Positions 2,433 to 49,675 of a stretch of DNA of 64,000 nucleotides are shown in pieces. A program made the translations under genes and the position numbers. This DNA is from Escherichia coli. GTDB lineage: Bacteria; Pseudomonadota; Gammaproteobacteria; Enterobacterales; Enterobacteriaceae. The notes beneath the pieces were generated by a model, which saw only the letters and a list, made by a program, of their open reading frames with translations, ran no database searches and was not told the DNA's origin. The DNA lies in the NCBI RefSeq assembly GCF_041886205.1, contig NZ_CP169029.1; one strand, given 5' to 3'. The stretch's first letter is position 1; the number at the start of each line of letters is the position of its first letter.

Positions 2433-3559
<1,127 letters not shown>

Positions 3560-3653: not shown

Positions 3654-4562
3654 CTAATTCTGCTGTAAAAAGTGCAGAAACTGACTTAAAGCATAAGAAG
3701 GCGTTTCGTTATTGCGCCAGAACACACCGACGCTGCCTTTCTGTTCTATCTTTGGCAGGTTGAGGATCACCAGTTGTCCCTGGCTGGCATAACGTTGCGC
3801 CAGGCGTAATGACAAAATAGAGATCATATCGCTGCTTTGTAACAGGTTGGTACTGACGTTCATCGACGCCGACTCAATCGTGTTTTCTGGCAGCATCACG
3901 CCGTGGTCTACCAGCGCATTATCAATGCTGATGCGGATGGGGGTACCTGTCGGCCAGACTATCCACCGCCAGTTAGCAAGATCATTCCAGCTGAGGGTGG
4001 CGTATTTCGCCAGTGGATGCTCAGGACGGGCGACAAAACACACCGGCTCGGTGTAGAGCACGCGATAATTCAGCGGCAGCTGCAACGCGCGACCGCCAAT
4101 TCGCCCAACCACCACATCGACAGAACCTGCCAACAGATCTTGCAGCAATGGGGTCATCACCTTCTCTTCGATATTCAGGTGTAGAGTTGGCATCTCCTTG
4201 AGCAAATGCAAAATCGCCTGGGATACGCAGTCAGTGGCGACGGGAGAACAGCCAATTTTCAGACTGCCGACCAGACCACCTTGTTTAAAACGGGCCAGTT
4301 CATGTTGCGAGCGCTCCATGTCATTGATTAACCGTTGGGCATGTTGCAATAACAATTTGCCGCCTTCAGTAGGACGAAGTCCTTTGCTGTGCCGCTCAAA
4401 AAGTGTGAGTCCGATCTCATCTTCCAGATGTGACAACCATTTCGAAAGCGCGGGTTGGGTGATATTCATCATCCGTGCGACATGGGTCAGATTACCCTGT
4501 TCACCCAGCGCCACCAGCATTTGCAGGTGATGAAGCTTTAGTTTCTGCGCCCAGTTTGCCAT
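3654..4562 (-). CDS. LysR-family transcriptional regulator, divergent from the gentisate operon (MhbR-like)
   Basis: 302-aa ORF. N-terminal HTH (LTHVARMMNITQPALSKWLSHLE) and a LysR substrate-binding body. Divergent arrangement is typical of catabolic LysR regulators. Confidence 0.8.
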   Translation of the reverse strand: MANWAQKLKLHHLQMLVALGEQGNLTHVARMMNITQPALSKWLSHLEDEIGLTLFERHSKGLRPTEGGKLLLQHAQRLINDMERSQHELARFKQGGLVGSLKIGCSPVATDCVSQAILHLLKEMPTLHLNIEEKVMTPLLQDLLAGSVDVVVGRIGGRALQLPLNYRVLYTEPVCFVARPEHPLAKYATLSWNDLANWRWIVWPTGTPIRISIDNALVDHGVMLPENTIESASMNVSTNLLQSSDMISILSLRLAQRYASQGQLVILNLPKIEQKGSVGVFWRNNETPSYALSQFLHFLQQN

Positions 4563-32148: not shown

Positions 32149-34420
32149 GGAAAACTCCCCAGTGTTGCAGCGATGCCAGTGCCTGCTGTTCGAGTTGTTG
32201 ATGATGTGCAATGGCTTGCGGTGGACAATGCAACGGTATTTGCAGCGCCGAAACGGGAAGTTGCGCCAGTTGATAATGCTCAAGCACCTGATGCGCCAGC
32301 GTCCCGCGTTCTCGTGGTGGTAGCCAGGCCATCGCCGCGCGTAAATCGGGCAGGGCATTGATAAAATCGGCATCACTCAGTTGATTTAAATGACTGCTGA
32401 AACCGGCGATAAATGCCGGCTGACAAGCCAGTTGATGACGGGCTAATGCCAGCAAACCGTGCAGCGCCTCGCCGGATTGGGCCGGGGATAACTGCGTCAG
32501 CATTGTCAGCGCCGCTTCGGCACTAGCGTTGGGATGTTCCAGACGCATCAGTGCGCCAAGAGTCGCGCCGCGATCCAGCGCCGGGGCATGAATCGCCTGA
32601 CTGCGGCGCTCCAGTAAGGCTACCGCCGCAGAAAGCGAAACGCCGGATAAGTTAACGCCGCTATGTAGATCGCGCAGGATATGGCAAAGCGCTTGCCAGC
32701 TATGCAGGTGAGCGTGAAACTCCTTTTCATCCGGTCTGCCGTTGGATTCACACAGCCACAGCGTGCGATCGATAGCCGCGCATAACGTCGTTTGTAATAT
32801 CTGCGCGCCTTGCATACCGCTAATTTCATCCAGCCGCCATAAGGCATATAGCACTTCCAGCGCCTGGCCCATTTCGGCAAATTGATTTTCCTGGGCGATT
32901 AATAATGTGAGTTGTTCCAGTAATTGCTCACTAAAGCTCGCCAGGCCCGCTAACGCCGCCTGGCTAAGACATGCGGTAATGCTGCCGATTCCACCCGCGT
33001 CCAGCATATCGGCTTCTAATTTATTGCGTGCGGCTTCCTGGAGTGTTGCACCAAAGCAGGCGGCCTCAATCAATGCCGCATGCTGGCTAAGCGGGCGGGT
33101 TAATTTCCAGCGTTCTTCACCGTTGCCTGCAAGTGTCAGTGTACTTCCCTGCTGGCGTAAAATCCCTGGGATCTCCAGTATTGCCAGCCGATGTAACACC
33201 TGACTTTGCGCTAGTCCATTGGGGTTAAAGCGATTTAAGGTAAGCTGCGCCGGAAGAGAGATTCCGGTACGTTCCAGTTCGCAGGTGACATCTTTTGGCA
33301 GAGGCGGTTGTGGCGTGGAGGGGGCAAGTTTACCGAATCCGTCACCCGCTAATGTGTCTATCAACGTTAGCAGAATCGGATCGGTATCGGGATGAATAAC
33401 TCCGCGATAGCTCCACGGCAACGGCGCGTTCAAGGCTTCTTTAATCAGCGAGCCTGCTATGGCATCCAGCCAGTCAGTGCGTAACGGTAGTGTATGACCG
33501 CGCAACTGTGCCAGTGCCATTGCATGCAGATGTGCGGCAGCCATATCAGCGGTAGAAGCGGGCAATTTGTGCTGGCGCAAACGGGTGAGAACCGTTTTTA
33601 GCAGTTGTTCTCCCGCCTGCTGTAAGCCCCACTGCCAGCACCAGTTTTGCCAGACCGGAGCAGGCATTCCGGAAAGGTATCCTGCCAGCACATCAAGGCG
33701 CTTTTCGCTGTATGGCGTGAGATAACAACCTGTAACGGCATCATCCTGTGAGGGCAATTCTGGCTTGTTAATTTCCTGCGGGCATTCGCGCCACATTTTT
33801 GCCAGTGCCGGAGCGTGCCAGCCACCGCAGACGACTAACACGTCGCCATTGTTTTGCAGCATCGCCCATCCAATCCAGCGGGCCATAAAGGCTTCGCGCT
33901 GACGATTGAGAGCATCTCCGGGGGAATCGCCCCGCAGTTGGGCAAAATAGTGCGCCAGCGCAGAGGGTAATGCAGTTTGCTGGCTTTCATCTTCGAATAA
34001 GTGATCCCACAGGGTGTCGCTGTTATCCATGCGGGTGGCACGCAGCAGCAAGGCCTGGCTTTCCTCTTGCGTATCAGGCGAATCGTCCTCTTCTTCACTC
34101 TGCGCCCAGCAAGGCAAATCGATGAAGTAAGTTTGTGCCTGAATACGACGTGCGGCTTGTAGCGCCTGCCACTCCGGCGAAAATTCAGCAAATGGCGTCC
34201 AGGCACCGCGCCCGGGGGCCGTACCGTCCTGATACTGGCAATAACTGTAAATAGCTACCGGAAGCTGGTGGGCTAAAAACAGTTCGTCTACCCGGTCATT
34301 AAAATCAGCCGGGCCTTCAATCAACACGTATCGTGGCCGCTGGCTTTCGATTAACGATTTCACCAGCCGGGCGCTGGCCGGGCTATGATGCCGGATGCCG
34401 ACAATTAACGGCTCGCTCAT
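32141..34420 (-). CDS. yehM: Large uncharacterised protein YehM (759 aa)
   Basis: Internal start MSEPLIVGIRHHSPASARL gives 759 aa and lies 10 nt after the yehL stop. I can see no recognisable catalytic motif. The C-terminal half is mostly helical and Leu/Ala-rich. Confidence 0.85.
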   Translation of the reverse strand: MSEPLIVGIRHHSPASARLVKSLIESQRPRYVLIEGPADFNDRVDELFLAHQLPVAIYSYCQYQDGTAPGRGAWTPFAEFSPEWQALQAARRIQAQTYFIDLPCWAQSEEEDDSPDTQEESQALLLRATRMDNSDTLWDHLFEDESQQTALPSALAHYFAQLRGDSPGDALNRQREAFMARWIGWAMLQNNGDVLVVCGGWHAPALAKMWRECPQEINKPELPSQDDAVTGCYLTPYSEKRLDVLAGYLSGMPAPVWQNWCWQWGLQQAGEQLLKTVLTRLRQHKLPASTADMAAAHLHAMALAQLRGHTLPLRTDWLDAIAGSLIKEALNAPLPWSYRGVIHPDTDPILLTLIDTLAGDGFGKLAPSTPQPPLPKDVTCELERTGISLPAQLTLNRFNPNGLAQSQVLHRLAILEIPGILRQQGSTLTLAGNGEERWKLTRPLSQHAALIEAACFGATLQEAARNKLEADMLDAGGIGSITACLSQAALAGLASFSEQLLEQLTLLIAQENQFAEMGQALEVLYALWRLDEISGMQGAQILQTTLCAAIDRTLWLCESNGRPDEKEFHAHLHSWQALCHILRDLHSGVNLSGVSLSAAVALLERRSQAIHAPALDRGATLGALMRLEHPNASAEAALTMLTQLSPAQSGEALHGLLALARHQLACQPAFIAGFSSHLNQLSDADFINALPDLRAAMAWLPPRERGTLAHQVLEHYQLAQLPVSALQIPLHCPPQAIAHHQQLEQQALASLQHWGVFHV

Positions 34421-34430: not shown

Positions 34431-35519
34431 TCACGGCAGGCGGTGGCGGGCTTGATAATAAGCCTGCCAGTGAGCTTCTTTATGTGTGGCGACTCGCTGT
34501 TCGAAGTAACGGCGCAGACGAGCGCGATCTTCTTCGTTATCTTTGACGATGGTTCCGGCAATACAGTCCACCAGATCGGCTGGCTCACCTGCGCGATTCG
34601 CTAAAAACCAGGCGCGGACGCCCACAGCGTGGGCCACGTTCACGGCTTCAGCGGTGGACATAATCGCTGTTAGTGTATCCATTGACGTTTTCTTTTCGCC
34701 GTTGGCACGCAGATCGCGGAAGGTGCGGACCAGTAACTCCAGTACCGCGTCAGGCACTTTATGCGGAATACCGCTATGGGCCAGCAAACGCGCCGAAGCA
34801 CTGGCGACCAGTTCCAGCTCCTGAGCGAAATCCATAATCGGAAAGACAGTTTCAAAATCGAAGCGACGCTTTAGCGCAGCACTCATCTCATTGACGCCGC
34901 GATCGCGCGTATTGGCAGTGGCAATAATATTAAAGCCTTCCCGCGCATAGAGTTGACTGGCTTCACCAGTGAGTTCCGGCACCGTCATCACCCTGTCAGA
35001 AAGCATACCTAACAGACAGTCTTGCACTTCCAGCGGTGTACGCGTTATCTCTTCAAAACGGACGATTTTGCCGTCGCGCATTCCCTGGTAAAGCGGGGCA
35101 GGGACCAGCGCTTCCGTTGATGGACCATGATTGATAAGCAGAGCGTAGTTCCAGCCGTACTTGATTTGATCTTCAGTGGTAAATGCGCCGCCCTGGATGG
35201 TTAACCCGGCATCGCCGCTAATAGCGGTTGCCAGTAATTCAGACAGGAGAGATTTTGCGGTGCCCGGTTCCCCCACCAACATCAAACCGCGCCCGGTGGC
35301 AAGAGTGACTAACATACGTTCGACAGCAGAGGGACTAATCACGACTTTACGGCTAATATTTTGCGCGCTATCGCCAAGGATAAAAGCACGTGCCGCAGGC
35401 AAACTTAACTGCCAACCGGGCGGGCAAGGTGCGTTATCATTTTGTTTTAATTTTGCCAGTTCATCGGCGTATAACACAGCGGCAGGCGGACGCTGCAGAT
35501 GATTATTCTGCGGTGACAT
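34431..35519 (-). CDS. yehL: MoxR-type (AAA_5-like) AAA+ ATPase YehL
   Basis: Internal start MSPQNNHLQRPP gives 362 aa. Walker A GEPGTAKS, a Walker B-like KIVRFEE, and sensor-1 IIATAN. Confidence 0.88.
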   Translation of the reverse strand: MSPQNNHLQRPPAAVLYADELAKLKQNDNAPCPPGWQLSLPAARAFILGDSAQNISRKVVISPSAVERMLVTLATGRGLMLVGEPGTAKSLLSELLATAISGDAGLTIQGGAFTTEDQIKYGWNYALLINHGPSTEALVPAPLYQGMRDGKIVRFEEITRTPLEVQDCLLGMLSDRVMTVPELTGEASQLYAREGFNIIATANTRDRGVNEMSAALKRRFDFETVFPIMDFAQELELVASASARLLAHSGIPHKVPDAVLELLVRTFRDLRANGEKKTSMDTLTAIMSTAEAVNVAHAVGVRAWFLANRAGEPADLVDCIAGTIVKDNEEDRARLRRYFEQRVATHKEAHWQAYYQARHRLP

Positions 35520-35630
35520 ATATTCATCCCTGAAATGTATTAATGAAATAAACGATATTTTACGCGCAATAAATGTTTGGCGCATTAGTTGTTTGAGCGA
35601 AAAATATCTGGAAAGCAGATCACAGTAAAT

Positions 35631-35660
35631 AAAAAAACCTGCTGGTGAGGCAGGTTCTTT
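35631..35660 (-). terminator. Strong intrinsic terminator between yehK and yehL
   Basis: On the minus strand: aacctgc-ctcacca-gcaggtt followed by ttttttt. An A-run on the other side makes it potentially bidirectional. Confidence 0.7.
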
Positions 35661-35825
35661 TATTTACTATTTTCAGGCCTAACACCACAGCCTGTGCAAC
35701 ATCGTGTTCCAACGAACGAATTATAACCACGGCTGGACCCCGTTGCAATTAAGATAATGAGATTTATAATCCAGACCGTTGGGACGTTGCGCCGGATCGG
35801 ACCAATTTGAATTATTTAGAGTATA

Positions 35826-36143
35826 TTATTCTATTTCTTGGTTGAATATATTCTGTAGTTCACGATTAAAAATTGCTATTACAGTTTCAGGTGATTCACC
35901 TCGTAATTTCCGCTCATCAATACACTCATCTCTTATATAAATCAACGCATCATTTATTAGCGGGTCAGCATCTTCTCGATCACGTTGATGAAATGTTGGA
36001 TGTAGCCGGAATCGCTCCAGTCGATAGACGGAACCTGTAAATAATTCAGAGCATTTATGGATCTCAAGTCTGAAGGAAAACGGATCTTCAGGTACAGGGA
36101 CCTCATAATCGTAAATAGCAACCAGCTCTTTTTGCACGATCAT
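35826..36143 (-). CDS. yehK: Small uncharacterised protein YehK (105 aa)
   Basis: 105-aa ORF, visibly AT-rich compared with its neighbours. No signal peptide or TM segment. Acidic. Confidence 0.75.
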   Translation of the reverse strand: MIVQKELVAIYDYEVPVPEDPFSFRLEIHKCSELFTGSVYRLERFRLHPTFHQRDREDADPLINDALIYIRDECIDERKLRGESPETVIAIFNRELQNIFNQEIE

Positions 36144-36202: not shown

Positions 36203-39200
36203 TTAATGGAAAATGACGTCGGGTGCGCTTAACGCCTCACTCAAATCAAACACATCAAGTGCGGCAAAAGTGACGGATTTATTGTCACGGTACACCCGAA
36301 GAGAACGGAAGCTCATCAGCGCTTTGCTATCAGCACTGTAGTAGTTAAAACCGGGTGAAAACTTAAGGACCAGCCGGTACTCACCTAAGTCATAGACAAA
36401 TGCGTCCTCATAGCCTGACTCCCAGCCTTTGTATCGCATTCCCATAAGCTGCCCAACGGTAGCGGATTTACCTTCCCAGCGAGTCAGGCTGTTACTGGTT
36501 GACTCGTCAGGTGTGAGCAGCACCGTGCGGCGCGACAACTGGCGAAAAGGCGGCATAATTTCGTAATCGGCAAAAAGCTGTGCAAATTCACTGCGCATTT
36601 CTGCTGTCATTTCTAACGGGTGGGCAATGCCAATCAGAGCGTCCGCAGGCAGGTCAATGGGCTCATCTTGTGCATTGCAGAATTCCCCCTCTGCGGCCAC
36701 ACGAAAGGTGTTGAGTAAACGACGTGGTTCATTTGCCGGATAAACCCCCCATATTAATCGCTGGGTAACCAGGCGGGTAAAGGGATGATTAACAAAAAGA
36801 GAATGAAAATCTGCCAGCGACCAGCGTCGGGTGGTGCGTAGGGCAGTTTCAAGACGCGGGAGCAGGTTTTTGCTCACCTGAGTGGCATCTTTTTTTAGCC
36901 CTTTTAGTCGGGCCAGTGCCTCGGGCGCTTTCAGTTGATCGTCATCGGCGCGCAACCGGGGAACACTTTTCTGGCGAACGTTTTGTTGATCGTAGATAAC
37001 CGGGTTGAGGTTTTCATCGAAGCGAACGGTAAACTGCCGGGGACCAAAATCAAAAATCAACGCCTGCGGATCATCAAGACCCAGTGTTGGGACTAATCTG
37101 TCCGCTAACTCTTCCTGGCTTAGCCCGCGATTTTCTGCGACCACCTGAAGAAATTCCGCTGCGTTTTCACGTAATGAAGAGGATTTCGCCCGTTGTGATA
37201 CATGATGCAGCTGTATCAGCGCCATATCATTATTCATCAGGGTGAGTATATTCAGACCACTGACAGCACGGGCAGATTTGCCTTCTTGTGGCCAAGCGAG
37301 GATCTGTGTTGTTAGATCCCGTGCCGTGCTTTCGTCACCAAAGAGACTTAACGCCAGAAATGCCCAGTTGTCTTTTGCGGGGGCACCAGCTTGTTGCCAT
37401 GCGGTGAAGAGATCCCAGGCAAAAGCTGCCAGCGTTTGCGGCTGGCAGAACGTTTTCAGTTGTTCCAGCCCGCTATAAAAACGTCCCCCTTGGGTAAAGC
37501 GCAGCATTTCGCCAATAATTTCCAGAGCGTCATCGGTAACAGGTTGATTATTAGTGATAAGGCGCGGCCTGGACCACATTTGCGGATGCCAGAAATCAGG
37601 GGCTTTTGGAATGCGTGCCGGGTAAATCTCTATTGGACTCTGTTTAAGTAATTGTTCCAGGGCAGGCCATACATCAGCGCGATCCCAGCGGTTTGCCACG
37701 GTTTGTAGTAATACGCCATGTCCCTGTTCGTAAAGTAAACGCAGGGCAAGTAATGCAGCTTCGCTATTATCGCTGGATTTAGTGAAGACAAGAGGGATAA
37801 GTGCAGTAGCCGTATGTTCCGGCCATTGTAAAATCCACTGGCGAGCCAGATCACGCTGCGCCGCGAAACGTCGCCAGACGCGGGCAACAGGCAGCGCCAG
37901 TTCTGTTGCGCCGAAATGAATCAGCAGCGGAAATATCTCTTGTGGATGTCGGGCAAAGGCGGTGTTTAATCCAGGCAAAGCATCGGTAGCCAGCACACTT
38001 AACAGATATTCCACCCCAGTGTAATGAAAATCAGCATCGACAATTTGTTGCCAGCACGATACCGCCATTTCGCGCGGCATCTGCGCGATAAGGTACAGAT
38101 TCCAAATCCCCCAACGCTTTTCATTACCATAGTAAAATTCGTGCTGAAAAGTTCGCCACCCTTCCATCAACGCAATGCAATCTTGTGCCAGTAATGCTTT
38201 GGTGGCTTCTTCACGATACTGTTTAGATTTGGCCTGATGCGCGTGATAAGTACGCAATAGTCCTATTGATGTGTATTCTTGCAGTTGCTGAGCATCAAAG
38301 GCATCCAACTGTCCATTAAGAAGATGCTTATTAAATTCCAGGCTATGAACGTCAAAACCTAATTCCCGCAAGAAGGTATCCGCCCCTCTCTTAGCAATAC
38401 GTTCGTCAAAAGACATGGCGCTAAAATGGTCAATTGCAGTTTGCTGTTCCGGCGTCCAGTGTTTATTCGGCGACCTGTACGTTTGCGGTGCAAGCGTAAG
38501 ATCAGGCAGCGAAAAGTGAGGTATGGAAGTCTTTTTCTTCCTCCCACGCCATGGTGGTGAAACGAGGATTTCAGGCATTTGGCTGTTATCGGTACTATCA
38601 ATAACCGGTTTGGGCGGTGCCAATAAATAACTATTCAGTACTGCCCGGGCTTGAGTACTTAACCACTGCATCACCTCTTCTGCCAGTTGTGGCTGCGATG
38701 CCATCAGCGTTTGTAACAGCGTACGCCAGTATTCATCTCGAGCTTTTTGCTGGGCAGGCAGCTTTTTGTCTTCGATGATTGGATAACCAGGGCGGGCTGG
38801 TGGTTCTTTTAACGCCAACAGTTCTGCCAGTGCCGCGAGCGTCGCGTGGGGGAAGTTTTTACTGTATTTAGCCACACGTTGCAGGCTGGGTTTGTTTTTA
38901 TCAGCCACCAGTAGCAAGGTGCGGATGACCTGCGGATGGTTAATTTGTACCAACAGACTGCCGCAATCTTCTTTATGGGCATACATCGCGAGGCGCGGAA
39001 TGGCTGCCAGTCCTTGTTCGCGCAAAAGGGCGGCGCAGGCCGCGTAGCCGAAGTGGTTTTCATGCGACATGTAGCTGGCTTCGCGATCGCTAAATATATC
39101 CTGACTCCAGTAGTGATCGAGTTTCCTCACCGCTGTGGGGTCATTAGCAACAACTTTTAGCCACTCCTTAGAATGATAATGAGTCCGTGGGCATTCAAGG

Positions 39201-39850
39201 CCTATCAACTCATTGGCGATTTCTGGTTTTTCCGGGAGGATCAGCGCAATAAAAGGGCGGCGAACTTTGGTTATTCCTGGCAGTGCGGCAATGAGTTTGT
39301 CGGCGCAACGCTGCCAGCAGCTTTCCTCTGCCAGAGAGAGATGCTTACGCAGTCGGAGATCGAATTCGTTATAGGTTTCTGATCGATAACCATAGCCATA
39401 GTCCTCGTTCTGATACTGCAATGTCACTACCAGAGGATCACTCTCATAACACCGCGCAATAAACTGGCGTGCAATCACCACCTCAGTCGCATATTCCAGT
39501 CCCTCTTGTTGGACGATTTCGTCGAGCAACTGTTGGCTGTCATTTTGCGCGATACAGGCTAGTGCCGCCATTGTGCGGGCCGGGACTGAGGGTTTGTGTT
39601 CGCCGATCAAGTTGATGGCCTGCGTAATGGCGGACTGCCACTCCAGTGAAAAATTTTCATAACGCCAGACAATGTTTTTTTTCTTCTCAGCTTTTTGTAG
39701 CAATTCATCACCCAGTGTCTGAATGATGCTTTCAGTGATAACAGGCACCGGTTCGCCCGGCCATTTGCGATGACTGAGTGGTGTTTTGCCTTTTTTATAT
39801 TTCAGTTCCAGTTGGGCGTTATCCGCCAGCCACGGTAATTCCTTGTCCAT
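36203..39850 (-). CDS. yehI: MolR/YehI-family giant protein YehI (1215 aa); lacks the N-terminal WGR-like module
   Basis: Uninterrupted 1215-aa ORF. It aligns to the upstream paralogue from about residue 97 (LPWLADNAQ vs LPWLADGAQ) through the C-terminus. The start is 9 nt after the upstream stop, and that spacer contains aggaaagag (SD). Confidence 0.88.
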   Translation of the reverse strand: MDKELPWLADNAQLELKYKKGKTPLSHRKWPGEPVPVITESIIQTLGDELLQKAEKKKNIVWRYENFSLEWQSAITQAINLIGEHKPSVPARTMAALACIAQNDSQQLLDEIVQQEGLEYATEVVIARQFIARCYESDPLVVTLQYQNEDYGYGYRSETYNEFDLRLRKHLSLAEESCWQRCADKLIAALPGITKVRRPFIALILPEKPEIANELIGLECPRTHYHSKEWLKVVANDPTAVRKLDHYWSQDIFSDREASYMSHENHFGYAACAALLREQGLAAIPRLAMYAHKEDCGSLLVQINHPQVIRTLLLVADKNKPSLQRVAKYSKNFPHATLAALAELLALKEPPARPGYPIIEDKKLPAQQKARDEYWRTLLQTLMASQPQLAEEVMQWLSTQARAVLNSYLLAPPKPVIDSTDNSQMPEILVSPPWRGRKKKTSIPHFSLPDLTLAPQTYRSPNKHWTPEQQTAIDHFSAMSFDERIAKRGADTFLRELGFDVHSLEFNKHLLNGQLDAFDAQQLQEYTSIGLLRTYHAHQAKSKQYREEATKALLAQDCIALMEGWRTFQHEFYYGNEKRWGIWNLYLIAQMPREMAVSCWQQIVDADFHYTGVEYLLSVLATDALPGLNTAFARHPQEIFPLLIHFGATELALPVARVWRRFAAQRDLARQWILQWPEHTATALIPLVFTKSSDNSEAALLALRLLYEQGHGVLLQTVANRWDRADVWPALEQLLKQSPIEIYPARIPKAPDFWHPQMWSRPRLITNNQPVTDDALEIIGEMLRFTQGGRFYSGLEQLKTFCQPQTLAAFAWDLFTAWQQAGAPAKDNWAFLALSLFGDESTARDLTTQILAWPQEGKSARAVSGLNILTLMNNDMALIQLHHVSQRAKSSSLRENAAEFLQVVAENRGLSQEELADRLVPTLGLDDPQALIFDFGPRQFTVRFDENLNPVIYDQQNVRQKSVPRLRADDDQLKAPEALARLKGLKKDATQVSKNLLPRLETALRTTRRWSLADFHSLFVNHPFTRLVTQRLIWGVYPANEPRRLLNTFRVAAEGEFCNAQDEPIDLPADALIGIAHPLEMTAEMRSEFAQLFADYEIMPPFRQLSRRTVLLTPDESTSNSLTRWEGKSATVGQLMGMRYKGWESGYEDAFVYDLGEYRLVLKFSPGFNYYSADSKALMSFRSLRVYRDNKSVTFAALDVFDLSEALSAPDVIFH

Positions 39851-39859
39851 GCTCTTTCC

Positions 39860-42800
39860 TTATTCAAACAGGGCTTCAATATCGTTAATTAGCTCGCTGG
39901 CGGTGATGGCATCGAGTACGGAGAACTGCGCTTCCTGTGTTGAATTACTCCCCCAGCCATAGCTTTCCGCTTTGCCTTCCCATAACCACAGCTTGCTTAA
40001 GAGCTGCTCAGCGCTAAGTTCGGCTGGTGACATACCCACCGCAAAACCTTCGTCGATTTCCATGATTAACGACCAGCGACCCAAAGGTTTGATCATCCAT
40101 CCGATCCAGCCTCCATCCTGTGGTTCGCCCTTTATCCAGCCTTTATTCGCCAGCCCCATGACCCGACCACTCGGGCATTTTCTGCCTGCCCAGCGGGTCA
40201 GTTCACTGGCATTGCGCTCGGCTTCTGTCAGGGCGTAGCTGTTACGGTCGAGCTGGCGGAACGGTGGTAGCAGTTCGTAGTCGGCAAAAAGCTGACCAAA
40301 GGCGGCAGCATCCGTTGGTGATATTTCCAGAACGTGAGGAGTGCCGATAGAGATATCGCCTTCCGGCAGGGTGAAAAGATCATCGTCAGCGGTGCTGTAG
40401 CTGTTATCTTCTGCTACGCGAAAGCAAGCCAGTAGCTGGTTTTCGGCGCTATAAACGCCCCAAATCAGACGGCGGGTTAAGTGACGAACCAGCGGATGCT
40501 CAACCAGGAAGAGCTGGAAGTTTTCCAGCGACCAGCGGCGGCGCAGGCACATGGCGGATTCCAGCCTTGCTACCTGCTGGGCGGCGACGGTACGCGCATC
40601 TTTTTTCAGCAGTTTGTAGCGGTTAACAGCATCGTTCGCCTGTGATTCATCATCGCTTTTGTTTGGTTTGGGCAGGTCTTTCAGACGGCTGCCGGAAGCG
40701 TCACGCACAAACGGTTTTAAGGTTTCATCAAAGCTGACGGTGAACTGGCGTGGGCCGAAATCCAGCAGCAACGAACCGTTATCATCCAGACCGAGATCTG
40801 GTGCTAACCGATCTTCAAGCTCCGCCACCGTGAGTTCGCGGCTCTCGGCAATATCGGCAATTTTCTCTTTTGCCCGCTCCTGTAAAGCTTTGAATTTCAG
40901 TTTCTGAGCAATGCCGTTAAGCTGCATCAGAGCAATATCACTACCGATAGCGGCGAGGATATCAAGCCCGACGGTGGCGCGTTTATGCTGGGATTCGCCA
41001 GGCCAGGCGCGGATTAATGGCGTCAGTTTGCGGGCGGTGTCATCGTTACCGAGAACGCCTAACGCAGTGAACGCCCAACTCTCTTTCGACGGCGCGCCAG
41101 CGGTCTGCCAGGCGGTAAACAGATCCCAGGCAAATTCAGCCAGTGAGTCGGCGGTACAGGCGTCTTTCACCTGTAATATTCCCGGATACAGAACCTCTTC
41201 CTGAGGGAAGCGGAGCATTTCACCGAGGTGGAGGAGGGCTCTATCTGGCAGTGATTGGGCGTTTGCTTTTAATACCGGGCGCGTCCAGAGCGATGGTTGA
41301 TAAAAGGCCGGAAGAGTGGGGATTTTTGTCGGGTGATTATCTAAGGGATCGAGCGCAAGCAGAGCGTTCACCGCATCGGTTACTTCCGGCTGGTTATAAC
41401 GTCGGGCGATTTCTTGCAGTAATGGCTGATGACCGTTTTCGGTAAGCATACGCAAGGCAGCGCGGGCGTTATCCTGTGCTTCACCGGCTTTGCCGAGCGC
41501 CGCAGGCAGCAGGCCGGTAAGGGCATGTTCCGGGTATTTCAACAGCCAGCTACGGGCGTTTTCGCGTAGCGTTTTGAGTTTGTTGAAGGCACGGGCAATC
41601 AGTGGCGCTAATTCGATAGCCGCAAAATATTGTGCTACAGGCAGCGCTTCTTGCGGATAGCGAGATGCTGAGTGGATAAAACCTGTTAAACCAGCAAGTC
41701 GAAGATGCAACATTACTTGTGTTGCACCTGTATGTGGTTCTTTACTAAGGATGTTCCACATCTCGATAGCTTTATTAATGGGTAAAACATGGAGTGAAGA
41801 AAGATTCCATTCGCCCTGATAAGGGGAGTTATAGGACTTAAAAGCATCAATCAGCGCTGAATAATCTTCACGCTGCAAGGCATCCAGTGCTATTTCTGGA
41901 ACATCAATATAGCCTCTATGTTTGTTCCAATCCCAGCGGTTGAATCCCAGGGAGGTCAGAAAAGCTTTTTCTCCCTCAGCTTGCTGATGAGGTTGCCAGT
42001 TATGCTGCACTTGCAGTGTTTTGCTTTTTGTTTCATTTATTGTACAGAAGGATTCTAGGGATAATGGTGCTAAATCCAGCACCGAAATCGTCGATTTTTT
42101 CTTTTTAGCCAGCCAGGGCGGTGAGACTAATACGGCAGGCAGCATATCAGCGTTCGCATAAACTGAAGGTTGTGTCAGTTGTTGCTGGCATGACTTAAGA
42201 ACGGTAACTGCCGGGGCAGATAGCCAGGAGATTACCCGTTCTGCTAATGTTGGTTGTGAGATAAGCATTGTCATTAGCATCATGCGCCAGCGCTTTTCAT
42301 CTTTTTTTGCCAGAAGTTCTGCTAATGCCGCCAGCGCTGCATGTGGAAAGCGAACGAAAGCCTTTGTCATGCGATCGTGGCAACGCTTTCCCTGCTCGCT
42401 TGCATGGATAAGTAGTGTAAGTGCCTGCGGGTGGTTGATATGCATCAACACTTCACCACATGTGTCACCAGCAGCGTAAGGAGCAAAACGGGCCAGCGCA
42501 GCGACACCTTGCTCCTTGAGTATCGTTGCGCACCAGATTTTACCTCCGTAATAATCATCAAATACCTGCCCAGGCTGTCCTGGATAGTATTTTCCCAGTT
42601 CTGCCAATACCTGCTCGTCAGCGGCCGTCAGTTTTAGCCATTCCAGCGCATATAACCCTTTTTGTCCGCAAAGATGTCTGGCAATCTCATGAGCTATTTC
42701 TGGTTTTTCCGGCAACAATAGTGCAACCAGCGGCTGGTGCCAGGTGGGCATGTTTCCGAGAGCGGCAATCAGTTTGTCGGCGCAGCGCTGCCATACATCG

Positions 42801-43618
42801 TCATTTGCAAGTGAGAGATGCTTACGCAGGCGCATTTCAACCGAAGCGAAGCGTAACAGATAGCCAGGCTGCCTGTTATCCGGGGTAACCGTAATGAGAT
42901 GGGCATCATAATCCCAGTCGAAGCGGATGAATTGCAATGCAATGACAACCTCAGTGGCATATTCCAGACCACCTTCCTGGACAATTTGATCCATTAACTC
43001 TTCATGATCGTTACGATTGAAGCCTTGTTCCAGCGCAACCAGTACCGCCAGTACCATCGGAGGTAGCGTGGTGCTAATTGGCGAGTCGATAAGGCCTACT
43101 GCTTGTGTAATTGCCTGCTGCCAGTCGAGTGAACAGGTACTGTAATCGAAGGTGAGCACCTTTTTAAAACGCCGGTGAGTATTCGCGGCAACGGTGCGTA
43201 GCAGGGTTAATTCATCCTCCTGCTGCACCGGATCGCCAGGCCAGCGTCGATGACTGAGTGTGGTTGGCGCAATCTCTGTCGGTAACATGATTTGGGCACC
43301 GTCTGCCAGCCAGGGGAGGAGGTCACCAGCAAATGCTGGTTTGTCTTGTGGCAAAGGGGTAATTTCAGGGCATTCAATAACCTGGCCGGGTGCAAATGTC
43401 GCTGTCATCACGGATACTTCTTCTACGTAGCCCTTTTTTGTTTTCTCCGCAATCAGCTTCAGCTCCGCTTTTTCCGCCGCCGCAGCATCTGCAAAGCTTT
43501 TTACCTGACTTTGCCCGTTACTGCCGACTTTACCCCAGTTAATATGCAGCTCGTTTCCCTGCTGCTCCACCGCCCAGAATTTATGTGATTTTTCGTCCTG
43601 ATAAATATAGGTTTTCAT
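39860..43618 (-). CDS. Intact MolR-family protein (1252 aa): N-terminal WGR-like domain plus a long helical/DUF4132-type body
   Basis: Uninterrupted ORF. The N-terminus MKTYIYQDEKSHKFWAVEQQGNELHINWGKVGSNGQSQVKSF fits the WGR-domain pattern (FW..., WG+xG..GQ). The C-terminal roughly 500 aa are about 75-80% identical to the neighbouring split paralogue. Confidence 0.85.
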   Translation of the reverse strand: MKTYIYQDEKSHKFWAVEQQGNELHINWGKVGSNGQSQVKSFADAAAAEKAELKLIAEKTKKGYVEEVSVMTATFAPGQVIECPEITPLPQDKPAFAGDLLPWLADGAQIMLPTEIAPTTLSHRRWPGDPVQQEDELTLLRTVAANTHRRFKKVLTFDYSTCSLDWQQAITQAVGLIDSPISTTLPPMVLAVLVALEQGFNRNDHEELMDQIVQEGGLEYATEVVIALQFIRFDWDYDAHLITVTPDNRQPGYLLRFASVEMRLRKHLSLANDDVWQRCADKLIAALGNMPTWHQPLVALLLPEKPEIAHEIARHLCGQKGLYALEWLKLTAADEQVLAELGKYYPGQPGQVFDDYYGGKIWCATILKEQGVAALARFAPYAAGDTCGEVLMHINHPQALTLLIHASEQGKRCHDRMTKAFVRFPHAALAALAELLAKKDEKRWRMMLMTMLISQPTLAERVISWLSAPAVTVLKSCQQQLTQPSVYANADMLPAVLVSPPWLAKKKKSTISVLDLAPLSLESFCTINETKSKTLQVQHNWQPHQQAEGEKAFLTSLGFNRWDWNKHRGYIDVPEIALDALQREDYSALIDAFKSYNSPYQGEWNLSSLHVLPINKAIEMWNILSKEPHTGATQVMLHLRLAGLTGFIHSASRYPQEALPVAQYFAAIELAPLIARAFNKLKTLRENARSWLLKYPEHALTGLLPAALGKAGEAQDNARAALRMLTENGHQPLLQEIARRYNQPEVTDAVNALLALDPLDNHPTKIPTLPAFYQPSLWTRPVLKANAQSLPDRALLHLGEMLRFPQEEVLYPGILQVKDACTADSLAEFAWDLFTAWQTAGAPSKESWAFTALGVLGNDDTARKLTPLIRAWPGESQHKRATVGLDILAAIGSDIALMQLNGIAQKLKFKALQERAKEKIADIAESRELTVAELEDRLAPDLGLDDNGSLLLDFGPRQFTVSFDETLKPFVRDASGSRLKDLPKPNKSDDESQANDAVNRYKLLKKDARTVAAQQVARLESAMCLRRRWSLENFQLFLVEHPLVRHLTRRLIWGVYSAENQLLACFRVAEDNSYSTADDDLFTLPEGDISIGTPHVLEISPTDAAAFGQLFADYELLPPFRQLDRNSYALTEAERNASELTRWAGRKCPSGRVMGLANKGWIKGEPQDGGWIGWMIKPLGRWSLIMEIDEGFAVGMSPAELSAEQLLSKLWLWEGKAESYGWGSNSTQEAQFSVLDAITASELINDIEALFE

Positions 43619-43630
43619 TGCTAAATCCTT

Positions 43631-45820
43631 TTAATCAAACAGTGATTCAATATCGTTAATCAGCTCGCTGGCGGTGATGTCGTCGAGCACGGAGAAGGGA
43701 TAAACCGATTTGCGCGGCGTCAGTTTGCACAACTGAATGTGCTCAATTTTTTGGCTATCGCTGATTTCGGTGACGGGCAATCCAACGCAGAAGCCTGGTG
43801 TCACACTCAGTTCGACGTAGCCATCATCCACAGATTTATAAAATGAGTAATAGCCGCCACCATCCAGCACATCGCCCCGTTGCCAGCCTTTATTCATCAG
43901 CCCGGCGACGCGCCCACTCGCTGCCTGGCGACCAGCCCAGCGCTGCAAATCGCTGCTGCTTTTTTCTGTCTCAGAGAGCTGAGACCAGGGGCGATCAAGT
44001 TGACTGAATGGTGGCAATAGTTCGTAGTCAGAGAACAGTTGTGCAAATTCAGCAGCCTGCGGGGCCGGGATTTCCAGTACATGCGGGATACCGATACTGC
44101 CCTGCGCAAGGGTTAACGGGTTATCCTGACCGTCGCTAAAACTGCCATCCTCCGCCACGCGGAAACAGGAAATAAGCTGATTATCAGCGTCATAAATGCC
44201 CCACATCAGACGTTGGGTGATATGACGAACCAGGGGATGCTCAACCAGAAACAGGCGGAACTGTTCTGCAGTCCAGCGGCGACGCTGACACATGGCGGCT
44301 TCCAGACGCGAAATCTGTTGTGCAGCTACCGTGCGGACATCTTTTTTCAACAACTTGTAGCGATTTACCGCTTCCTCAGCCAGCGTTTCATCATCGCTTT
44401 TGTTCGGTTTGGGCAGATCTTTCAGACGGTTGCCGGAAGCTTCGCGCACAAACGGTTTTAAGGATTCATCAAAGCTGACGGTGAACAGGCGTGGGCCGAA
44501 ATCCAGCAGTAGTGAGCCGTTATCATCCAGACCGAGATCGGGGGCTAACCGGTCTTCCATCTCTGCGACGGTGAGCTGGCGGCTTTCGGCAATCTGGGCG
44601 ATTTTAGTTCTAGCCTGATCCTGCAAGGCTTTAAATTTTAGCTTTTGCGCAATACCGTTAAGTTGCATCAGGGCGATATCGCTGCCGATAGCAGCAAGAA
44701 TATCCAGCCCGACAGTGGCGCGTTTATGCTGAGATTCCCCCGGCCATGCGCGGATGAGCGGGGTGAGTTTGCGGGCGGTGTCATCGTTACCCAGAATCCC
44801 CAGTGCGGTAAATGCCCAGTTATCTTTGGCTGACCCGCTTGCAATCTCCCAGCTCAAGAAGAGATCCCAGGCGAAATCGGCAAGAGACTGCGGGGTACAG
44901 GCCTCGATTACCTGTGTTATCCCCGGGTAAAGGGTGGCTTCGCGGGGAAAAGAGAGCATGGTGCACAGTTGCAGGATAGCTGAATCCGGAAGTGCCTTGC
45001 CGTTACTGCGCAGAAGCGGGCGGTGCCATACTTCAGGGGTACACCAGGCGGGGAGTTTAGCGATTTTCTGCGGAAAATTATCGAGGGGGTCGCTGTTAAG
45101 AACATCTAACAAACCCGTAAGCACTTCTGCCTGATTATAGCGGTGGGCAATTTCTTCCATTAACGGCTGATGCCCATGATGAGCCAGATAGCGAATTGCC
45201 GTAGCGGCGTCTTCACGCTCACTACCTGCTTTTCCCAGCACGGAAGGCAGCAGGCCCGTAATGGCATGTTCCGGATAGGTTAACAACCAACGTTCAGCAA
45301 CATCACGTACAGATTTAAGCTGACGAAAGGCGCGAGCCATTAAGGGGGCTACTTCGGTTGCGCCAAAACGTGCCGCTAAAGGAATGGCTTCCTGAGGTAC
45401 GACTAAGGCGCGACGCAGCAAGCCGGGCAATGTCGGAAGACCGTAATATTCCACTACTTCACATGCGTTAATCAGATGTAGGTGAGTCAGTGCGTTCCAT
45501 ATTTTCAGTGCTTTATTTTCTGATAACTGAAGCAATACCGACACATTGACAAGGATATGACTTGCCCACCGAGGTTTATCCCAGATCTTTAATAAAGCTT
45601 CGTAATTGTCCTGCTCGAAAAAATCAATGGCAGCCTGAGGTATACCCCAACCAAGCTCTTCGCAATGGAAGTTCAACAAATCCAGGATATCTTTCGCTGA
45701 TGGGGATGGCGCAGATGGCTCAGTCAGATTTTTTGTTGCGGGGATAGATTCAGGGGGGGAAGAGGTAATACCCGGAGAGTGAGGTTGATACCAGCAATCT
45801 TTTTCTTTTTTTCCAACCAT
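43631..45820 (-). pseudogene. C-terminal portion (729-codon ORF) of a third MolR-family gene, split by a frameshift
   Basis: Homologous to residues of about 530-1252 of the intact paralogue. Overlaps the N-terminal ORF by 97 nt in another frame. Adding one C to the C7 run at 45753-45759 fuses both ORFs into 1246 codons. Confidence 0.75.
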
Positions 45821-47370
45821 GAAGGGGCGATCAATATACTGGGTAATTCATTCTTATGAGCAATTTTTTCGATGGACATAAGCTGAGGAAAATAACTAAA
45901 TAAAATTTGTTGCTGTTTTTCGTCAAGCCAGGGAAGCGTTTTATGTAAGGCTTGCGCATTACCCAAGATGATGCGCTGCAGTAAACGATAATAGTGAGAG
46001 TTATTTGTGTAATTTAAGGCTTTTGTTAATGCATAAAGTGCAGCTTCAGGATGTAAATTTGTTGCGTGTTCCACTTCACTGATACATTCTTCTTTTATTA
46101 ATATATTAATGGCGTCAGGATGATTAACTTGTGTAATTAGATTTTTAACTGAATAACTATCCTTTATCCATGGCTGAAGAAGTGGAAGAGCTTTTACCCC
46201 TCGTTCACGCAGTAATGTCGCAGTGCATTTTTCCGCCGTCTGCCAGTCGTTATAGCGCTTAAGTTGGTTAAGATTCATCAATTCATTGAGTGCCTGCGGA
46301 TCTGTGGCAACGATATCCAACCATTCCATTTCTGGGTAATTAGCACATTGCACTAAGTCAAAGACAATTTGATTAGCAATTTCAGGTTGTTCAGGCAAAA
46401 GAAAACCTATTAAAGGGCGTTTACGTGGAGACAGGGAAGGCAACGCTTGAGTAAGCTTTTTCATGCACCGTTGCCATGTTTTTTCATCAATACGCGAGAG
46501 ATGATTTCGCAAGTGAAAATCTACAGTGCTGAAGCCGAATTCAAAACGTTGTTCTGATATTGTGTTACTTAGAATAAGCGTTGGTACGCAATTTTTTGTA
46601 AAAAAATTGTATCCCATGCGAACATACAAAAGGCATTTATCTAAAGCTTCACAATTTCCCGGATCTTGATTTTGATCATCTGATATCTGAATTTGCTGTA
46701 ATAGCAAGACTAATTCGGTCGCGTATTCTACCCCATGCTGTTGCGCCAGATAATCAAAAAGATCATTAGCGCTATCGCTATCTTGCATAAGAAACTTGAC
46801 CAGCAAAAAGAATGCATTGGAGAAAATCGAACCGTCTATATTTTTCTGCTGAACGCGCATGATTGCTTCATCCCGGCCTCGTTGCCATTCCGGGCGGCAG
46901 TCACTCACATCAAAATGCTGTAATTGTGCAAGAAAATAGTATTCCTCATATTTGTTTTCCCATAAGAGTGACCATAACGAGATATCTTTAGCAAACGTCC
47001 TGACACTGTCGGCTGGGAATTTCCTACTGCTAAATACTCTCTTTGTTTCGAGAATGATTGGTTCAAGGTCCGCAATCCACGGTGGTGTGTCGACATCAGT
47101 AATAATTGGATGTTGTTCGCTATCATCAGCTGTGGTGGGAACAGTTATCAGCATGTTTATATCGTCAGTCGATTTTACATACCCCTTCTTCACCTTCTCC
47201 GCAATCAACTTCAGCTCCGCTTTTTCCGCCGTTGCAGCATCCGCAAAACTTTTTACCTGGCTTTGCCCTTGGGTGCCAACTTTTCCCCAACTGATATGCA
47301 ACTCGTTTCCCTGTTGCTCCACCGCCCAGAATTTATGTGATTTTTCGTCCTGATAGATAAAGCGTCTCAT
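45724..47370 (-). pseudogene. N-terminal portion (548-codon ORF) of the split MolR-family gene: WGR-like domain plus an AT-rich divergent region
   Basis: N-terminus MRRFIYQDEKSHKFWAVEQQGNELHISWGKVGTQGQSQVKSF. It ends just after PSWLEKKKKIAGINLTL, which is homologous to PPWLAKKKKSTISVLDL in the intact copy. Confidence 0.75.
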
Positions 47371-47470
47371 TCTGCATCCCTGTAATTTTATCCAGTTGAA
47401 TGCAGATGCTACCAGTATTTATGCGGGTTAGAGAGAGACAAAATCGCAAGAAAACAACTTTAGGAATTTA

Positions 47471-47510: not shown

Positions 47511-49544
47511 TTATTTCACCTGATGACCCGGTTTAGCACCGGCATCCGGGCTTAGCAGGAAGATATCTTTCCCGCCAGGACCAGCAGCCATTACCATGCC
47601 TTCGGAGATACCAAAGCGCATTTTACGCGGCGCCAGGTTAGCCACCATAATGGTGTGACGACCAATCAGAGCCTGCGGATCCGGGTAAGCAGAACGAATG
47701 CCGGAGAAAACATTACGTTTTTCACCGCCGAGATCCAGTGTCAGTCGCAGCAGTTTGTCAGAACCTTCAACAAACTCTGCATTTTCAATCAGCGCCACGC
47801 GCAGGTCAACTTTAGCGAAGTCGTCAAAGGTGATGGTTTCCTGAATCGGATCGTCTGCCAGCGGGCCAGTAACTGTCGCGGCAGCTGCTTTCACTTCTTC
47901 TTTAGAGGCTTCCACCAGTGCTTCAACCTGCTTCATATCGATGCGGTTATACAGCGCCTTGAACGGATTCACTTTGTGGCCCAGCAGCGGTTGCTGGATA
48001 CCATCCCAGGTCAGTTCCGTATTGAGGAATGCTTCTGCACGCTCGGTCAGTTTCGGCAGTACCGGCTTCAGGTAAGTCATCAGCACGCGGAACAGGTTTA
48101 TGCCCATTGAGCAAATTGCCTGCAGGTCGGCATCGCGGCCTTCCTGTTTCGCCACAACCCACGGAGCCTGTTCATCGACATAGCGGTTAGCCAGATCAGC
48201 CAGCGCCATGATTTCGCGCACGGCTTTACCAAATTCGCGGCTTTCCCACGCTTCACCAATCACTTCAGCGGCATCAGTGAAGGTTTTGTACAACTGCGGG
48301 TCAGCCAGTTCGCTTGCCAGCACACCGTCAAAACGCTTGTTGATAAAGCCCGCATTACGAGAGGCCAGGTTAACCACTTTGTTAACGATATCGGCATTCA
48401 CGCGCTGAACGAAATCTTCCAGGTTGAGATCGATATCATCAATGCGCGAAGAGAGTTTCGCAGTGTAGTAGTAACGCAGGCTGTCAGCGTCAAAATGATT
48501 CAGCCAGGTGCTGGCTTTAATAAAGGTACCGCGAGACTTAGACATCTTCGCGCCGTTCACCGTCACATAGCCATGAACAAACAGGTTGGTCGGCTTGCGG
48601 AAGTTGCTGCCTTCCAGCATTGCTGGCCAGAACAGACTGTGGAAGTAAACAATATCTTTACCGATGAAGTGGTACAGCTCGGCGGTGGAGTCTTTCTTCC
48701 AGTATTCATCGAAGCTTACGCTGTCGCCGCGCTTGTCGCACAGATTCTTGAAAGAACCCATATAGCCAATCGGCGCATCTAGCCAGACGTAGAAATATTT
48801 ACCCGGCGCGTTCGGAATTTCAAAACCGAAGTACGGCGCGTCGCGGGAGATATCCCACTGTTGCAGGCCGGATTCAAACCACTCCTGCATTTTATTTGCC
48901 ACCTGCTCCTGCAACGCACCGCTGCGGGTCCATGCCTGCAACATTTCGCTGAAAGAGGGCAGATCAAAGAAGAAGTGTTCAGAATCACGCATTACCGGCG
49001 TAGCGCCAGAAACCACCGATTTCGGCTCGATCAATTCAGTCGGGCTGTAGGTCGCGCCGCAAACTTCGCAGTTATCGCCGTATTGATCCGGGGATTTACA
49101 TTTCGGGCAGGTGCCTTTCACAAAACGGTCCGGCAGGAACATGCCTTTTTCCGGATCGTACAGCTGAGAGATGGTGCGGTTTTTAATAAAACCGTTTTCT
49201 TTCAAGCGAGTATAGATAAGCTCAGACAACTGGCGGTTCTCTTCGCTGTGCGTCGAGTGATAGTTGTCATAGCTGATGTTAAAGCCTGCGAAATCAGTCT
49301 GATGCTCCTGACTCATTTCGCCAATCATCTGCTCCGGGGTGATACCAAGCTGCTGAGCTTTCAGCATGATTGGCGTACCGTGGGCATCGTCGGCGCAGAT
49401 GAAGTTGACCTCGTGGCCGCGCATTCGCTGGTAACGGACCCAGACATCAGCCTGGATGTGCTCCAGCATATGGCCGAGGTGGATTGAGCCGTTAGCGTAC
49501 GGCAGTGCGCACGTCACCAGAATTTTCTTCGCGACTTGAGTCAT
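47511..49544 (-). CDS. metG: Methionine--tRNA ligase
   Basis: Start [25 protein letters not shown] (677 aa). HIGH-type HLGH motif, KMSKS motif, and zinc knuckles CPKC...CEVC. Confidence 0.96.
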
Positions 49545-49675
49545 AGTAGGCATTACTTCTTAATAGTGAAAAGGGGTTAGATAGTACCAAATGGGAAAAT
49601 GTTAAGTAAGTACTTCTCTATATTCTTCAGGTAAACTATCAGCTGATGGTTTATCTATACAAAAAAGGAGTCGGG

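Follow-up and report, generated by a model that had tools for sequence, protein, structure and literature searches.

In Rhs/CdiA orphan modules and hsdS shufflons, conserved boundary sequences enclose hypervariable bodies, and recombination at these boundaries gives rise to chimeras and to changes in copy number. The molR/yehI genes of Escherichia coli share this combination of features, and they are described here from a 64,000-nucleotide (nt) stretch of contig NZ_CP169029.1 (assembly GCF_041886205.1), referred to below as the window, in which three large genes for DUF4132 proteins lie between metG and yehK. Unlike the units of the Rhs/CdiA and hsdS systems, those of the MolR/YehI array are whole, apparently co-transcribed genes and not silent cassettes, they come without a site-specific recombinase, and the changes that are documented consist of deletions and mosaics only, not of programmed switching. 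The locus and the family are already known and annotated, and the genes are assigned below to the classes P1, A, P2, and Y (the YehI class). In K-12 the same locus and family are represented by two genes, molR (the yehF/G/H fragments), which is a P1(5')::P2 chimera, and yehI, whereas the window holds three genes, of which the A-class gene is wholly absent from K-12. Sequence type ST131, where a "DUF4132 region" has been named (PMC9334617), and O157:H7 likewise carry a tandem of three DUF4132 genes in the metG-yehK interval (P423_RS12390-92 in JJ1886 of ST131), with the same P2 and Y classes as the window, but their first gene is the common P1 (30% of genomes), whereas that of the window is the rare A. 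Lastly, arrays of the form P1-A-P2-Y contain the orthologues of all three window genes, ordered as in the window and linked by the same junction modules, but they have kept P1 before A, whereas the P1 body (3,819 bp) was apparently lost from the window by unequal crossover. Three-gene arrays are common, and that of the window is a rare deletion variant. Overall, we place a probability of about 0.8 on the reading that the locus is a copy-variable array of ancient paralogues which has been cut by unequal recombination, and whose products would serve as adaptors.

The orientation of the window is the reverse of that in K-12: apbC lies on the plus strand, and the minus strand carries metG, the three large genes, yehK and yehLMPQ. 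After metG, the three paralogues fill exactly the interval 36203-47370. These genes, and the two short intervals that are important for the recombination argument, are as follows.

36203-39850, minus strand: copy C, YehI class, DUF4132 without WGR (1215 amino acids, aa)
39860-43618, minus strand: copy B, P2 class, WGR and DUF4132, orthologue of the body of K-12 molR (1252 aa)
43631-47370, minus strand: copy A, rare A class, WGR and DUF4132, chimeric P1(5')::A, frameshifted (from Pfam and open reading frames)
43424-43693, minus strand: A/B junction module, the conserved substrate of the recombination, running from the terminal ~75 nt of A across the 12-nt spacer AAAGGATTTAGCA into the WGR start of B (~195 nt)
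47234-47241, minus strand: crossover interval of 8 nt, gene nt 130-137, GATGCTGC (from the comparison with strain 6EVA)

The intergenic spacers measure 12 nt (A/B) and 9 nt (B/C). Pairwise blastp comparisons among A, B, and C gave E-values from 0 to 1e-135, the global amino acid identities being 49.9% (A-B), 41.1% (B-C), and 33.3% (A-C), and copy C aligns with copy B starting at residue 101 of the latter. The DUF4132 model of Pfam (PF13569; cut-off 27 bits) matches A, B, and C with 164.3, 175.2, and 161.0 bits, respectively, and the WGR domain (cut-off 22 bits) was found, at 64 bits, in copies A and B only. The blocks HLSLA..WQRCADKLIAAL, LLPEKPEIA, INHPQ and LVSPPW..KKKK are exact in B and C and recognizable in A. 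By their DUF4132 scores and their position beside yehLMPQ, all three belong to the MolR/YehI family, and A and B, which possess WGR, to its MolR subtype. An earlier note on this DNA had described three consecutive paralogues on the same strand, two of them with WGR and one without. The first part of this description agrees with the reading-frame boundaries, the blastp results and the presence of DUF4132 in all three, and the second with the WGR scores. The extent that it gave for the three genes is also correct, but it overlooked that copy A consists of two open reading frames in the window.

The three paralogues are not products of a recent duplication. At the DNA level their similarity is limited to a 5' end of ~200 nt (about 85%), a portion of the 3' half (about 72%) and the final 66 nt, their N-terminal 1.7 kb cannot be aligned, and the synonymous divergence (dS) between the paralogue classes is saturated. 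Orthologues of the individual copies are present in sister species. In both E. albertii and E. fergusonii, the metG-yehK interval holds four DUF4132 genes (P1-A-P2-Y), of which the first is orthologous to P1, the common first gene of E. coli (83-90% aa identity), the second to copy A of the window (76% in E. albertii and 70% in E. fergusonii), the third to copy B (P2; 87% and 73-79%, respectively) and the fourth to copy C (YehI). In a neighbor-joining (NJ) tree based upon the conserved C-terminal 640 residues, these proteins formed the clades P1, A+X (X being the sister class of A), P2, and Y. Three genes of Klebsiella spallanzanii branched as sisters of P1, P2, and Y, and the single-copy genes of Serratia and Edaphovirga branched outside. 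As the Klebsiella genes are the sisters of P1, P2, and Y, the duplications are older than the Escherichia-Klebsiella split. Within E. coli, copy A of the window cannot be aligned with P1 between nt 200 and 1900, their identity in the 3' half being only 56-68%, K-12 molR is 94.7% identical to copy B over its nt 1942-3796, and K-12 yehI is 94.8% identical to copy C outside a central cassette (about nt 1322-1890) where the two diverge. A recent gene conversion between A and B was considered for a stretch where their proteins are 80-92% identical, and it was rejected because the DNA identity there (~75%) is at the usual level between A and P2; the stretch apparently reflects constraint on the conserved C-terminal region.

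The junctions between the genes behave very differently from the gene bodies. The ~270-nt junction module was compared for 14 junctions from three species, where its mean identity is 92.5% with 205 of the 270 columns invariant, whereas the gene bodies beside it are unalignable. Between window positions 43443-43696 and the P1/A junction of the four-gene strain 6EVA, which has the MetG and YehI protein alleles of the window, the identity is 96.5%. In 6EVA the P1 and A genes are intact, and P2 is annotated as two partial pieces. From 150 nt upstream of the A start codon, which is as far upstream as this comparison extended, through gene nt 137, the window is identical to P1 of 6EVA; from gene nt 130 on, it is identical to the position-2 gene A of the same strain; and exactly one repeat unit (3,819 bp) is missing in the window relative to 6EVA. 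Identity to P1 as far as nt 137, identity to A from nt 130 and the lack of one unit are the signature of an unequal crossover, and copy A of the window is a chimera produced by unequal homologous recombination, which, judging from the outgroups, deleted one unit. The protein starts show the same pattern: metG-adjacent genes begin with MR(R/H)F or MK(R/S)F and internal genes with MK(T/I)Y, and copy A of the window begins with MRRF, whereas its position-2 orthologues begin with MKTY or MKIY.

A similar history is indicated for the K-12-type genes. All five that were examined have the four P1-diagnostic bases at their start, and over nt 1-163 they differ at 3-8 sites from the best P1 allele as against 16-25 from the best P2 allele. 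Past this P1-like 5' end (~120-165 nt) they are P2 along the entire body, the identity of K-12 to the P2 gene of AR349 by successive segments being 97, 96, 95, 95, 94, and 91%. The K-12-type molR is thus a P1(5')::P2 fusion gene, and the suggestion in the earlier note that a single-copy state could be a recombinational deletion product gains support for the single-WGR-gene state, with a P1 5' end on a P2 body in 5/5 cases. The possibility that K-12 molR is a half-and-half hybrid of A and B, or of P1 and P2, was rejected, as only its first ~120-165 nt are P1-like. The crossovers in K-12-type genes lie at at least two positions (about nt 163-167 and about nt 120-146), which suggests recurrent events or later conversion.

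Population counts were made in 5,426 complete E. coli genomes. The 198-nt WGR start is present at 7,073 places in 5,419 of these genomes (mean 1.3, maximum 4), two such starts being found in 20 of 60 evenly sampled records. The P1 body was detected in 1,644 genomes (30.3%) and the 3' 1.5 kb of YehI in 5,232, nearly always as a single copy, and the variable regions of the A class and its sister class X were found in eight and five genomes, respectively. The K-12 style two-gene array is estimated to occur in about 70% of the genomes and P1-P2-Y, found in O157:H7 and ST131 among others, in about 30%; these fractions derive from match totals and the 60-row sample, not from typing genomes singly. 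Array size in E. coli ranges from two to five genes; only a few genomes have four or five, the largest array being P1-A-X-P2-Y in GF4-3. In six of the eight A-class genomes A lies at position 2 behind P1, and A-P2-Y with A directly behind metG is found only in NZ_AP027790.1 and NZ_AP045833.1. The strain-to-strain variation in copy number and hybrid alleles that the earlier note expected from unequal recombination is seen in these arrays of two to five genes and in the chimeric junctions. Its description of K-12 as having only a fragmented molR and yehI holds for a derivative of C600 (a 3796-nt molR pseudogene plus yehI). As to how exceptional the window is, arrays of three genes make up ~30% of the panel, which is not the majority, and the composition A-P2-Y is present in 2/5,426.

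These results can be combined in the following scenario. The ancestral Escherichia would have had a P1-A-P2-Y row of at least four such genes in the metG-yehK interval, and unequal homologous recombination between junction modules would remove 3.8-kb units and leave chimeric genes behind. A 6EVA-like P1-A-P2-Y array, through a crossover at nt 130-137 of the WGR-coding sequence, would have given rise to the P1(5')::A-P2-Y array of the window, and the common K-12-type array P1(5')::P2-Y would have arisen by a like deletion. The chimeric A gene would later have taken on its 1-bp frameshift, if this is real. Judging from the outgroups, the arrays appear to have shrunk from a larger ancestral one, and the "molR pseudogene plus yehI" of K-12 would then represent an end point of array shrinkage and not the reference state. 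This bears on pan-genome annotation, on the reading of SOS-regulon and BglJ-RcsB data that were obtained from the K-12 promoter, and on the choice of a strain with intact genes for functional work.

Other origins of the array have to be weighed against this scenario. The earlier note had viewed it as a tandem triplication in which the strain gained an extra copy, which for a recent event starting from a K-12-like ancestor would fit the two genes of K-12 derivatives and the single WGR-type gene of about 70% of complete genomes. However, neither the triplication nor the gain is borne out: the paralogues, at 33-50% aa identity, without DNA similarity over the N-terminal 1.7 kb and with saturated dS, are far from the near-identical copies of a recent segmental triplication, each paralogue is matched by a separate orthologue in other species of Escherichia and in Klebsiella, the P1-derived 5' end of the K-12 gene is a deletion scar, and the window array itself seems to derive from a four-gene array by deletion. 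We regard a recent gain as extremely improbable. Hardly any weight is given either to an assembly artefact, in which a repeat has been expanded or collapsed. Such an error could be promoted by the repeated junction modules of ~270 nt, and copy A carries a change that may be of technical origin. It is broken into the overlapping open reading frames 45724-47370 (548 aa) and 43631-45820 (729 aa) through the loss of one base (GG to G at window 45750/45751) relative to NZ_AP027790.1, in which the base is retained and the A gene is intact (1246 aa); the extra base is likewise kept in the seven other A-class complete genomes, and the deletion is unique to the window. The frameshift may accordingly be genuine or a sequencing error. 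Against an artefact of the array as a whole, the complete genome NZ_AP027790.1 has the identical A-P2-Y order and differs from the window over the 11.9-kb array by only 3 single-nucleotide polymorphisms and 1 indel, metG is directly followed in NZ_AP045833.1 (from another host and another country) by a gene for the same A protein and then by one in the P2 position, and the gene bodies are too divergent to be confused by an assembler.

It is improbable as well, though less remotely so, that the A class was recently imported from another Escherichia lineage and that the window array reflects a replacement and not a deletion. The rarity of the A class (8/5,426 genomes), the GC content of its variable region (40.5%, vs. 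46-51% in other classes) and the common MetG and YehI protein alleles of its carriers, which suggest a single introgressed haplotype, would be in accord with import. Yet the closest relative of A outside E. coli is just 76% identical, so that the sampled genomes include no donor, and the junction in the window points to a deletion inside a four-gene haplotype, wherever that haplotype came from. The low GC of copy A, which was considered as a sign of recent transfer, was ruled out as such, since the A orthologues of E. albertii and E. fergusonii are equally low (41%) and it is a property of the class.

The variation among the alleles is of an unusual kind. The N-terminal ~1,900 nt of the P2 and K-12-type genes fall into discrete classes, with 90-100% identity within and 48-69% between classes, whereas their 3' 1,850 nt are 83-100% identical. 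In segment identity matrices, class membership switches from one segment to another, the P2 and K-12-type alleles being mosaics. The nonsynonymous divergence (dN) of the variable segments is about 100 times that of metG, and dN/dS is 0.06-0.36 for the variable segments, 0.017 for metG and 0.048 for yehL. In view of these dN/dS values, which point to purifying selection on the variable region, the variable alleles appear to be old and still constrained, and not decaying sequence. The mean pairwise dS of metG (47511-49553) across 14 E. coli loci is 0.15, a value from a sample that was picked for diversity and is not a fair estimate; it seems high for a core gene and could be due to hitch-hiking beside very old alleles.

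In AlphaFold models (predicted local distance difference test scores of 85 and 91), the protein of about 1,250 aa begins with a WGR domain (aa 1-66), which a disordered linker connects to a long HEAT-like solenoid, and ends in C-terminal alpha/beta DUF4132 domains. The first ~600 residues of the solenoid are hypervariable and the DUF4132 region is conserved. The modeled WGR fold matches the WGR domains of PARP1 and PARP3; WGR is shared with PARP1/2/3, but the MolR-type proteins are without the PARP catalytic domain and have WGR fused to a helical solenoid. Next to the array lie the following genes.

35826-36143, minus strand: yehK, a small gene closing the first transcription unit (annotation)
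34431-35519, minus strand: yehL, MoxR-type AAA+ ATPase (Pfam AAA_5, 119.5 bits)
32141-34420, minus strand: yehM, DUF5682 protein (Pfam, 330.9 bits)
31012-32148, minus strand: yehP, CoxE-type vWA protein (Pfam VWA_CoxE, 242 bits)
29015-31015, minus strand: yehQ, SWIM zinc-finger protein (Pfam SWIM, 31.9 bits)

YehL represents one of seven MoxR subfamilies (PMC3893208), and among solved structures the AAA domains of midasin are closest to it in sequence; a sequence search of the PDB with YehM, YehP, and YehQ found nothing. Our literature search found no mention of the DUF5682 domain and no functional study of yehL, yehM, yehP, or yehQ. The window contains a MoxR-type AAA+ gene (yehL, AAA_5) near a gene for a vWA protein with MIDAS (yehP, VWA_CoxE), an arrangement of an AAA_5-type ATPase encoded near a MIDAS-type vWA protein that is shared with RavA-ViaA, CoxD-CoxE, NorQ-NorD and midasin (Rea1). 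In contrast to RavA-ViaA, CoxD-CoxE, and NorQ-NorD, the YehL/YehP pair is joined by a DUF5682 protein, a SWIM protein and from one to six or more WGR-solenoid-DUF4132 proteins.

This association is widespread. A search of 1.84 billion proteins with the conserved C-terminal half of copy B gave 6,049 representative clusters at E <= 1e-3, and the DUF4132 family comprises about 6,000 protein clusters in at least four phyla. We have examined 80 loci from other species, belonging to the Enterobacterales, Burkholderiales, Xanthomonadales, Myxococcota, Actinomycetota, Acidobacteriota, and Alphaproteobacteria. A YehL homologue is present beside the DUF4132 gene(s) in 56 of them, mostly directly downstream and on the same strand, followed, in this order, by homologues of YehM (52/80), YehP (46/80), and YehQ (43/80). 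The number of tandem DUF4132 genes per locus ranges from one to at least six (Massilia). Homologues of yehK were found in Escherichia loci only, with none in the 80 loci, which come from other genera. Independent tandem DUF4132 expansions to six or more copies are seen within the Burkholderiales in Massilia (L041, L043, L046) and in Rhodoferax (L057), and some of the Massilia and Rhodoferax arrays are without adjacent yehLMPQ within the stretch examined.

With regard to expression, a pattern search revealed the following site, 10 nt upstream of the copy A start codon in the metG-proximal promoter region.

47380-47395, minus strand: LexA-box-like palindrome CTGGATAAAATTACAG, non-canonical CTGG-N8-ACAG

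The canonical CTGT-N8-ACAG is absent from the copy A promoter. Its sole perfect occurrence in the 64-kb window, at 29431-29446 inside yehQ (CTGTTTGTTGTAACAG), may mean nothing, as 0.59 occurrences are expected by chance. Previous work has listed molR among the E. coli genes with an SOS box (PMC6590174) and has shown that BglJ-RcsB activates the molR promoter (PMC3950696), that H-NS binds the yehK-yehL spacer and yehLM are up in hns/stpA mutants (PMC3686432), and that the DdrO radiation regulon of Deinococcus includes a WGR protein and a DUF4132 protein (PMC8533742).

Based upon these features, the array proteins are probably interchangeable subunits for the recognition of targets or ligands, i.e., adaptors of a YehL-YehP-YehM-YehQ machine. 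The variable surface of the solenoid would serve in recognition and the conserved DUF4132 part in docking, WGR, by analogy, would supply nucleic acid binding, and YehL/YehP would act, together with YehM and YehQ, as a midasin-like pair for ATP-driven remodeling, with expression that would be tied to SOS/LexA in Escherichia and Klebsiella. A number of observations weigh against parts of this reading, in addition to the indirect derivation of the copy-number fractions given above. The polarity of the recombination events is based upon outgroups, and homologous import from a four-gene donor could reverse it and turn a three-gene array into one of four. The frequency of pseudogenes shows that the genes are dispensable under many conditions; the pseudogenes include molR of K-12, both WGR genes and yehM of O157:H7, yehL of ECSC054, yehI of EC45, and copy A of the window. 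The putative link of MolR/YehI to YehLMPQ comes from sequence context. The solenoid models contain no enzymatic or recognizable effector fold, and no match in PADLOC-DB v2 (E <= 0.01) was found for A, B, C, YehK, YehL, YehM, or YehP. Finally, a scan for SOS boxes upstream of 71 homologous arrays from other taxa was positive for two Klebsiella loci only, the other pattern matches falling inside WGR coding sequence; because boxes are limited to Klebsiella among these 71 distant loci, SOS control is not a general feature.

Two other functions of the array can be compared with an adaptor role. One is that it constitutes the diversifying sensor layer of a conflict system, directed against phages or plasmids or involved in distinguishing self from non-self, in which YehLMPQ would transduce or execute the response. 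The discrete, mosaic and very old allele classes of the N-terminal 600 residues, the tandem amplification that recurs in unrelated lineages, the frequent pseudogenes and insertions of insertion sequences (IS) and transposons, a possible SOS control in E. coli and H-NS silencing of yehLM, and a type I toxin-antitoxin locus nearby (described below) would all be compatible with such a system. They stand against the lack of PADLOC matches and of a recognizable effector fold, dN/dS values that are below 1 throughout, and a distribution unlike that of typical defence islands: the locus occupies a fixed core-genome position in 5,419/5,426 E. coli genomes (99.9%), which is not the patchy distribution of a mobile element, it has no matches in 50,697 phage records, and only 31 of 72,556 plasmid records match, some of which are chromosome-sized. 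A conflict role is possible in our view but on balance unlikely. The other possibility is that of a housekeeping MoxR-vWA chaperone for the maturation of a metallo- or molybdo-enzyme, which we think rather improbable. MoxR-vWA pairs in general serve the maturation of metalloenzyme complexes (PMC3893208), YehP is a member of the CoxE-type vWA proteins, YehP and YehL show weak matches to cobaltochelatase and GvpN models, and the name molR goes back to a molybdate-utilization mutant, as cited at second hand through reference 69 in PMC8533742. However, molybdoenzymes work in K-12 in spite of its molR pseudogene, and hypervariability, changes in copy number and repeated decay are not expected of a maturation factor. 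Moreover, Pfam identifies only WGR and DUF4132 in the array proteins, with no helix-turn-helix or similar domain typical of transcriptional regulators, and the models show only solenoid and alpha/beta domains; with this domain content the label "molybdate metabolism regulator" is unsupported.

A bolder extension of the adaptor reading, which we consider speculative and would not expect to hold, is that the array forms the exchangeable recognition layer of a widespread five-component machine, resembling innate immunity or sensing damaged or foreign DNA, that has been missed by defence catalogues. If this were true, the junction modules would be kept because recognition units can be shuffled, lost and regained through them. 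In any case, the results draw attention to a conserved five-gene module of which one component bears the variability signature of recognition proteins (ancient classes, mosaicism, and copy-number change), and they open the YehL subfamily of MoxR ATPases to concrete tests.

The spacer between yehK and yehL contains, at 35631-35706 on the minus strand, a match to the Rfam OrzO-P antitoxin small RNA (99.9 bits; gathering threshold 60). The type I toxins ZorO/ZorP (z3289/z3290) of O157:H7 have been described at this locus (PMC2887945). Among the seven open reading frames of >=20 aa overlapping 35520-35830 there was no likely candidate for a hydrophobic toxin of 29 aa. As the spacer is short and a toxin-like reading frame was not found in it, the small RNA of the window may be an orphan. 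The length of the spacer varies, with about 0.3 kb in K-12 and the window and about 1.2 kb in O157:H7, M23314, and WP8. The yehK gene itself is swapped in some genomes for a differently sized "hypothetical protein" and is frameshifted in ST131, O6, and FDAARGOS_1262.

Mobile elements have entered the array repeatedly. In the ST131 subclade L1a, the blaCTX-M-15 transposon TnMB1860 is located in it (PMC9334617). In PT62 (LP5-1), an IS1 insertion goes along with the absence of most of P2, of yehI and yehK, and of the beginning of yehL, and IS600, IS3, IS66, and ISVsa5 insertions are found in other arrays.

Some observations concern other genes near the array. The yehP gene of K-12 has an experimentally supported +1 ribosomal frameshift site (PMC2790909). 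In the yehABCD fimbrial operon adjoining the locus, the usher gene is annotated as a partial pseudogene in NZ_AP027790.1. Of the 92 differences between the window and the same genome over 24 kb, 82 fall within yehQ/yehP at window 30000-32000 and only four within the array, and this 2-kb yehP/yehQ stretch looks like a recombination tract.

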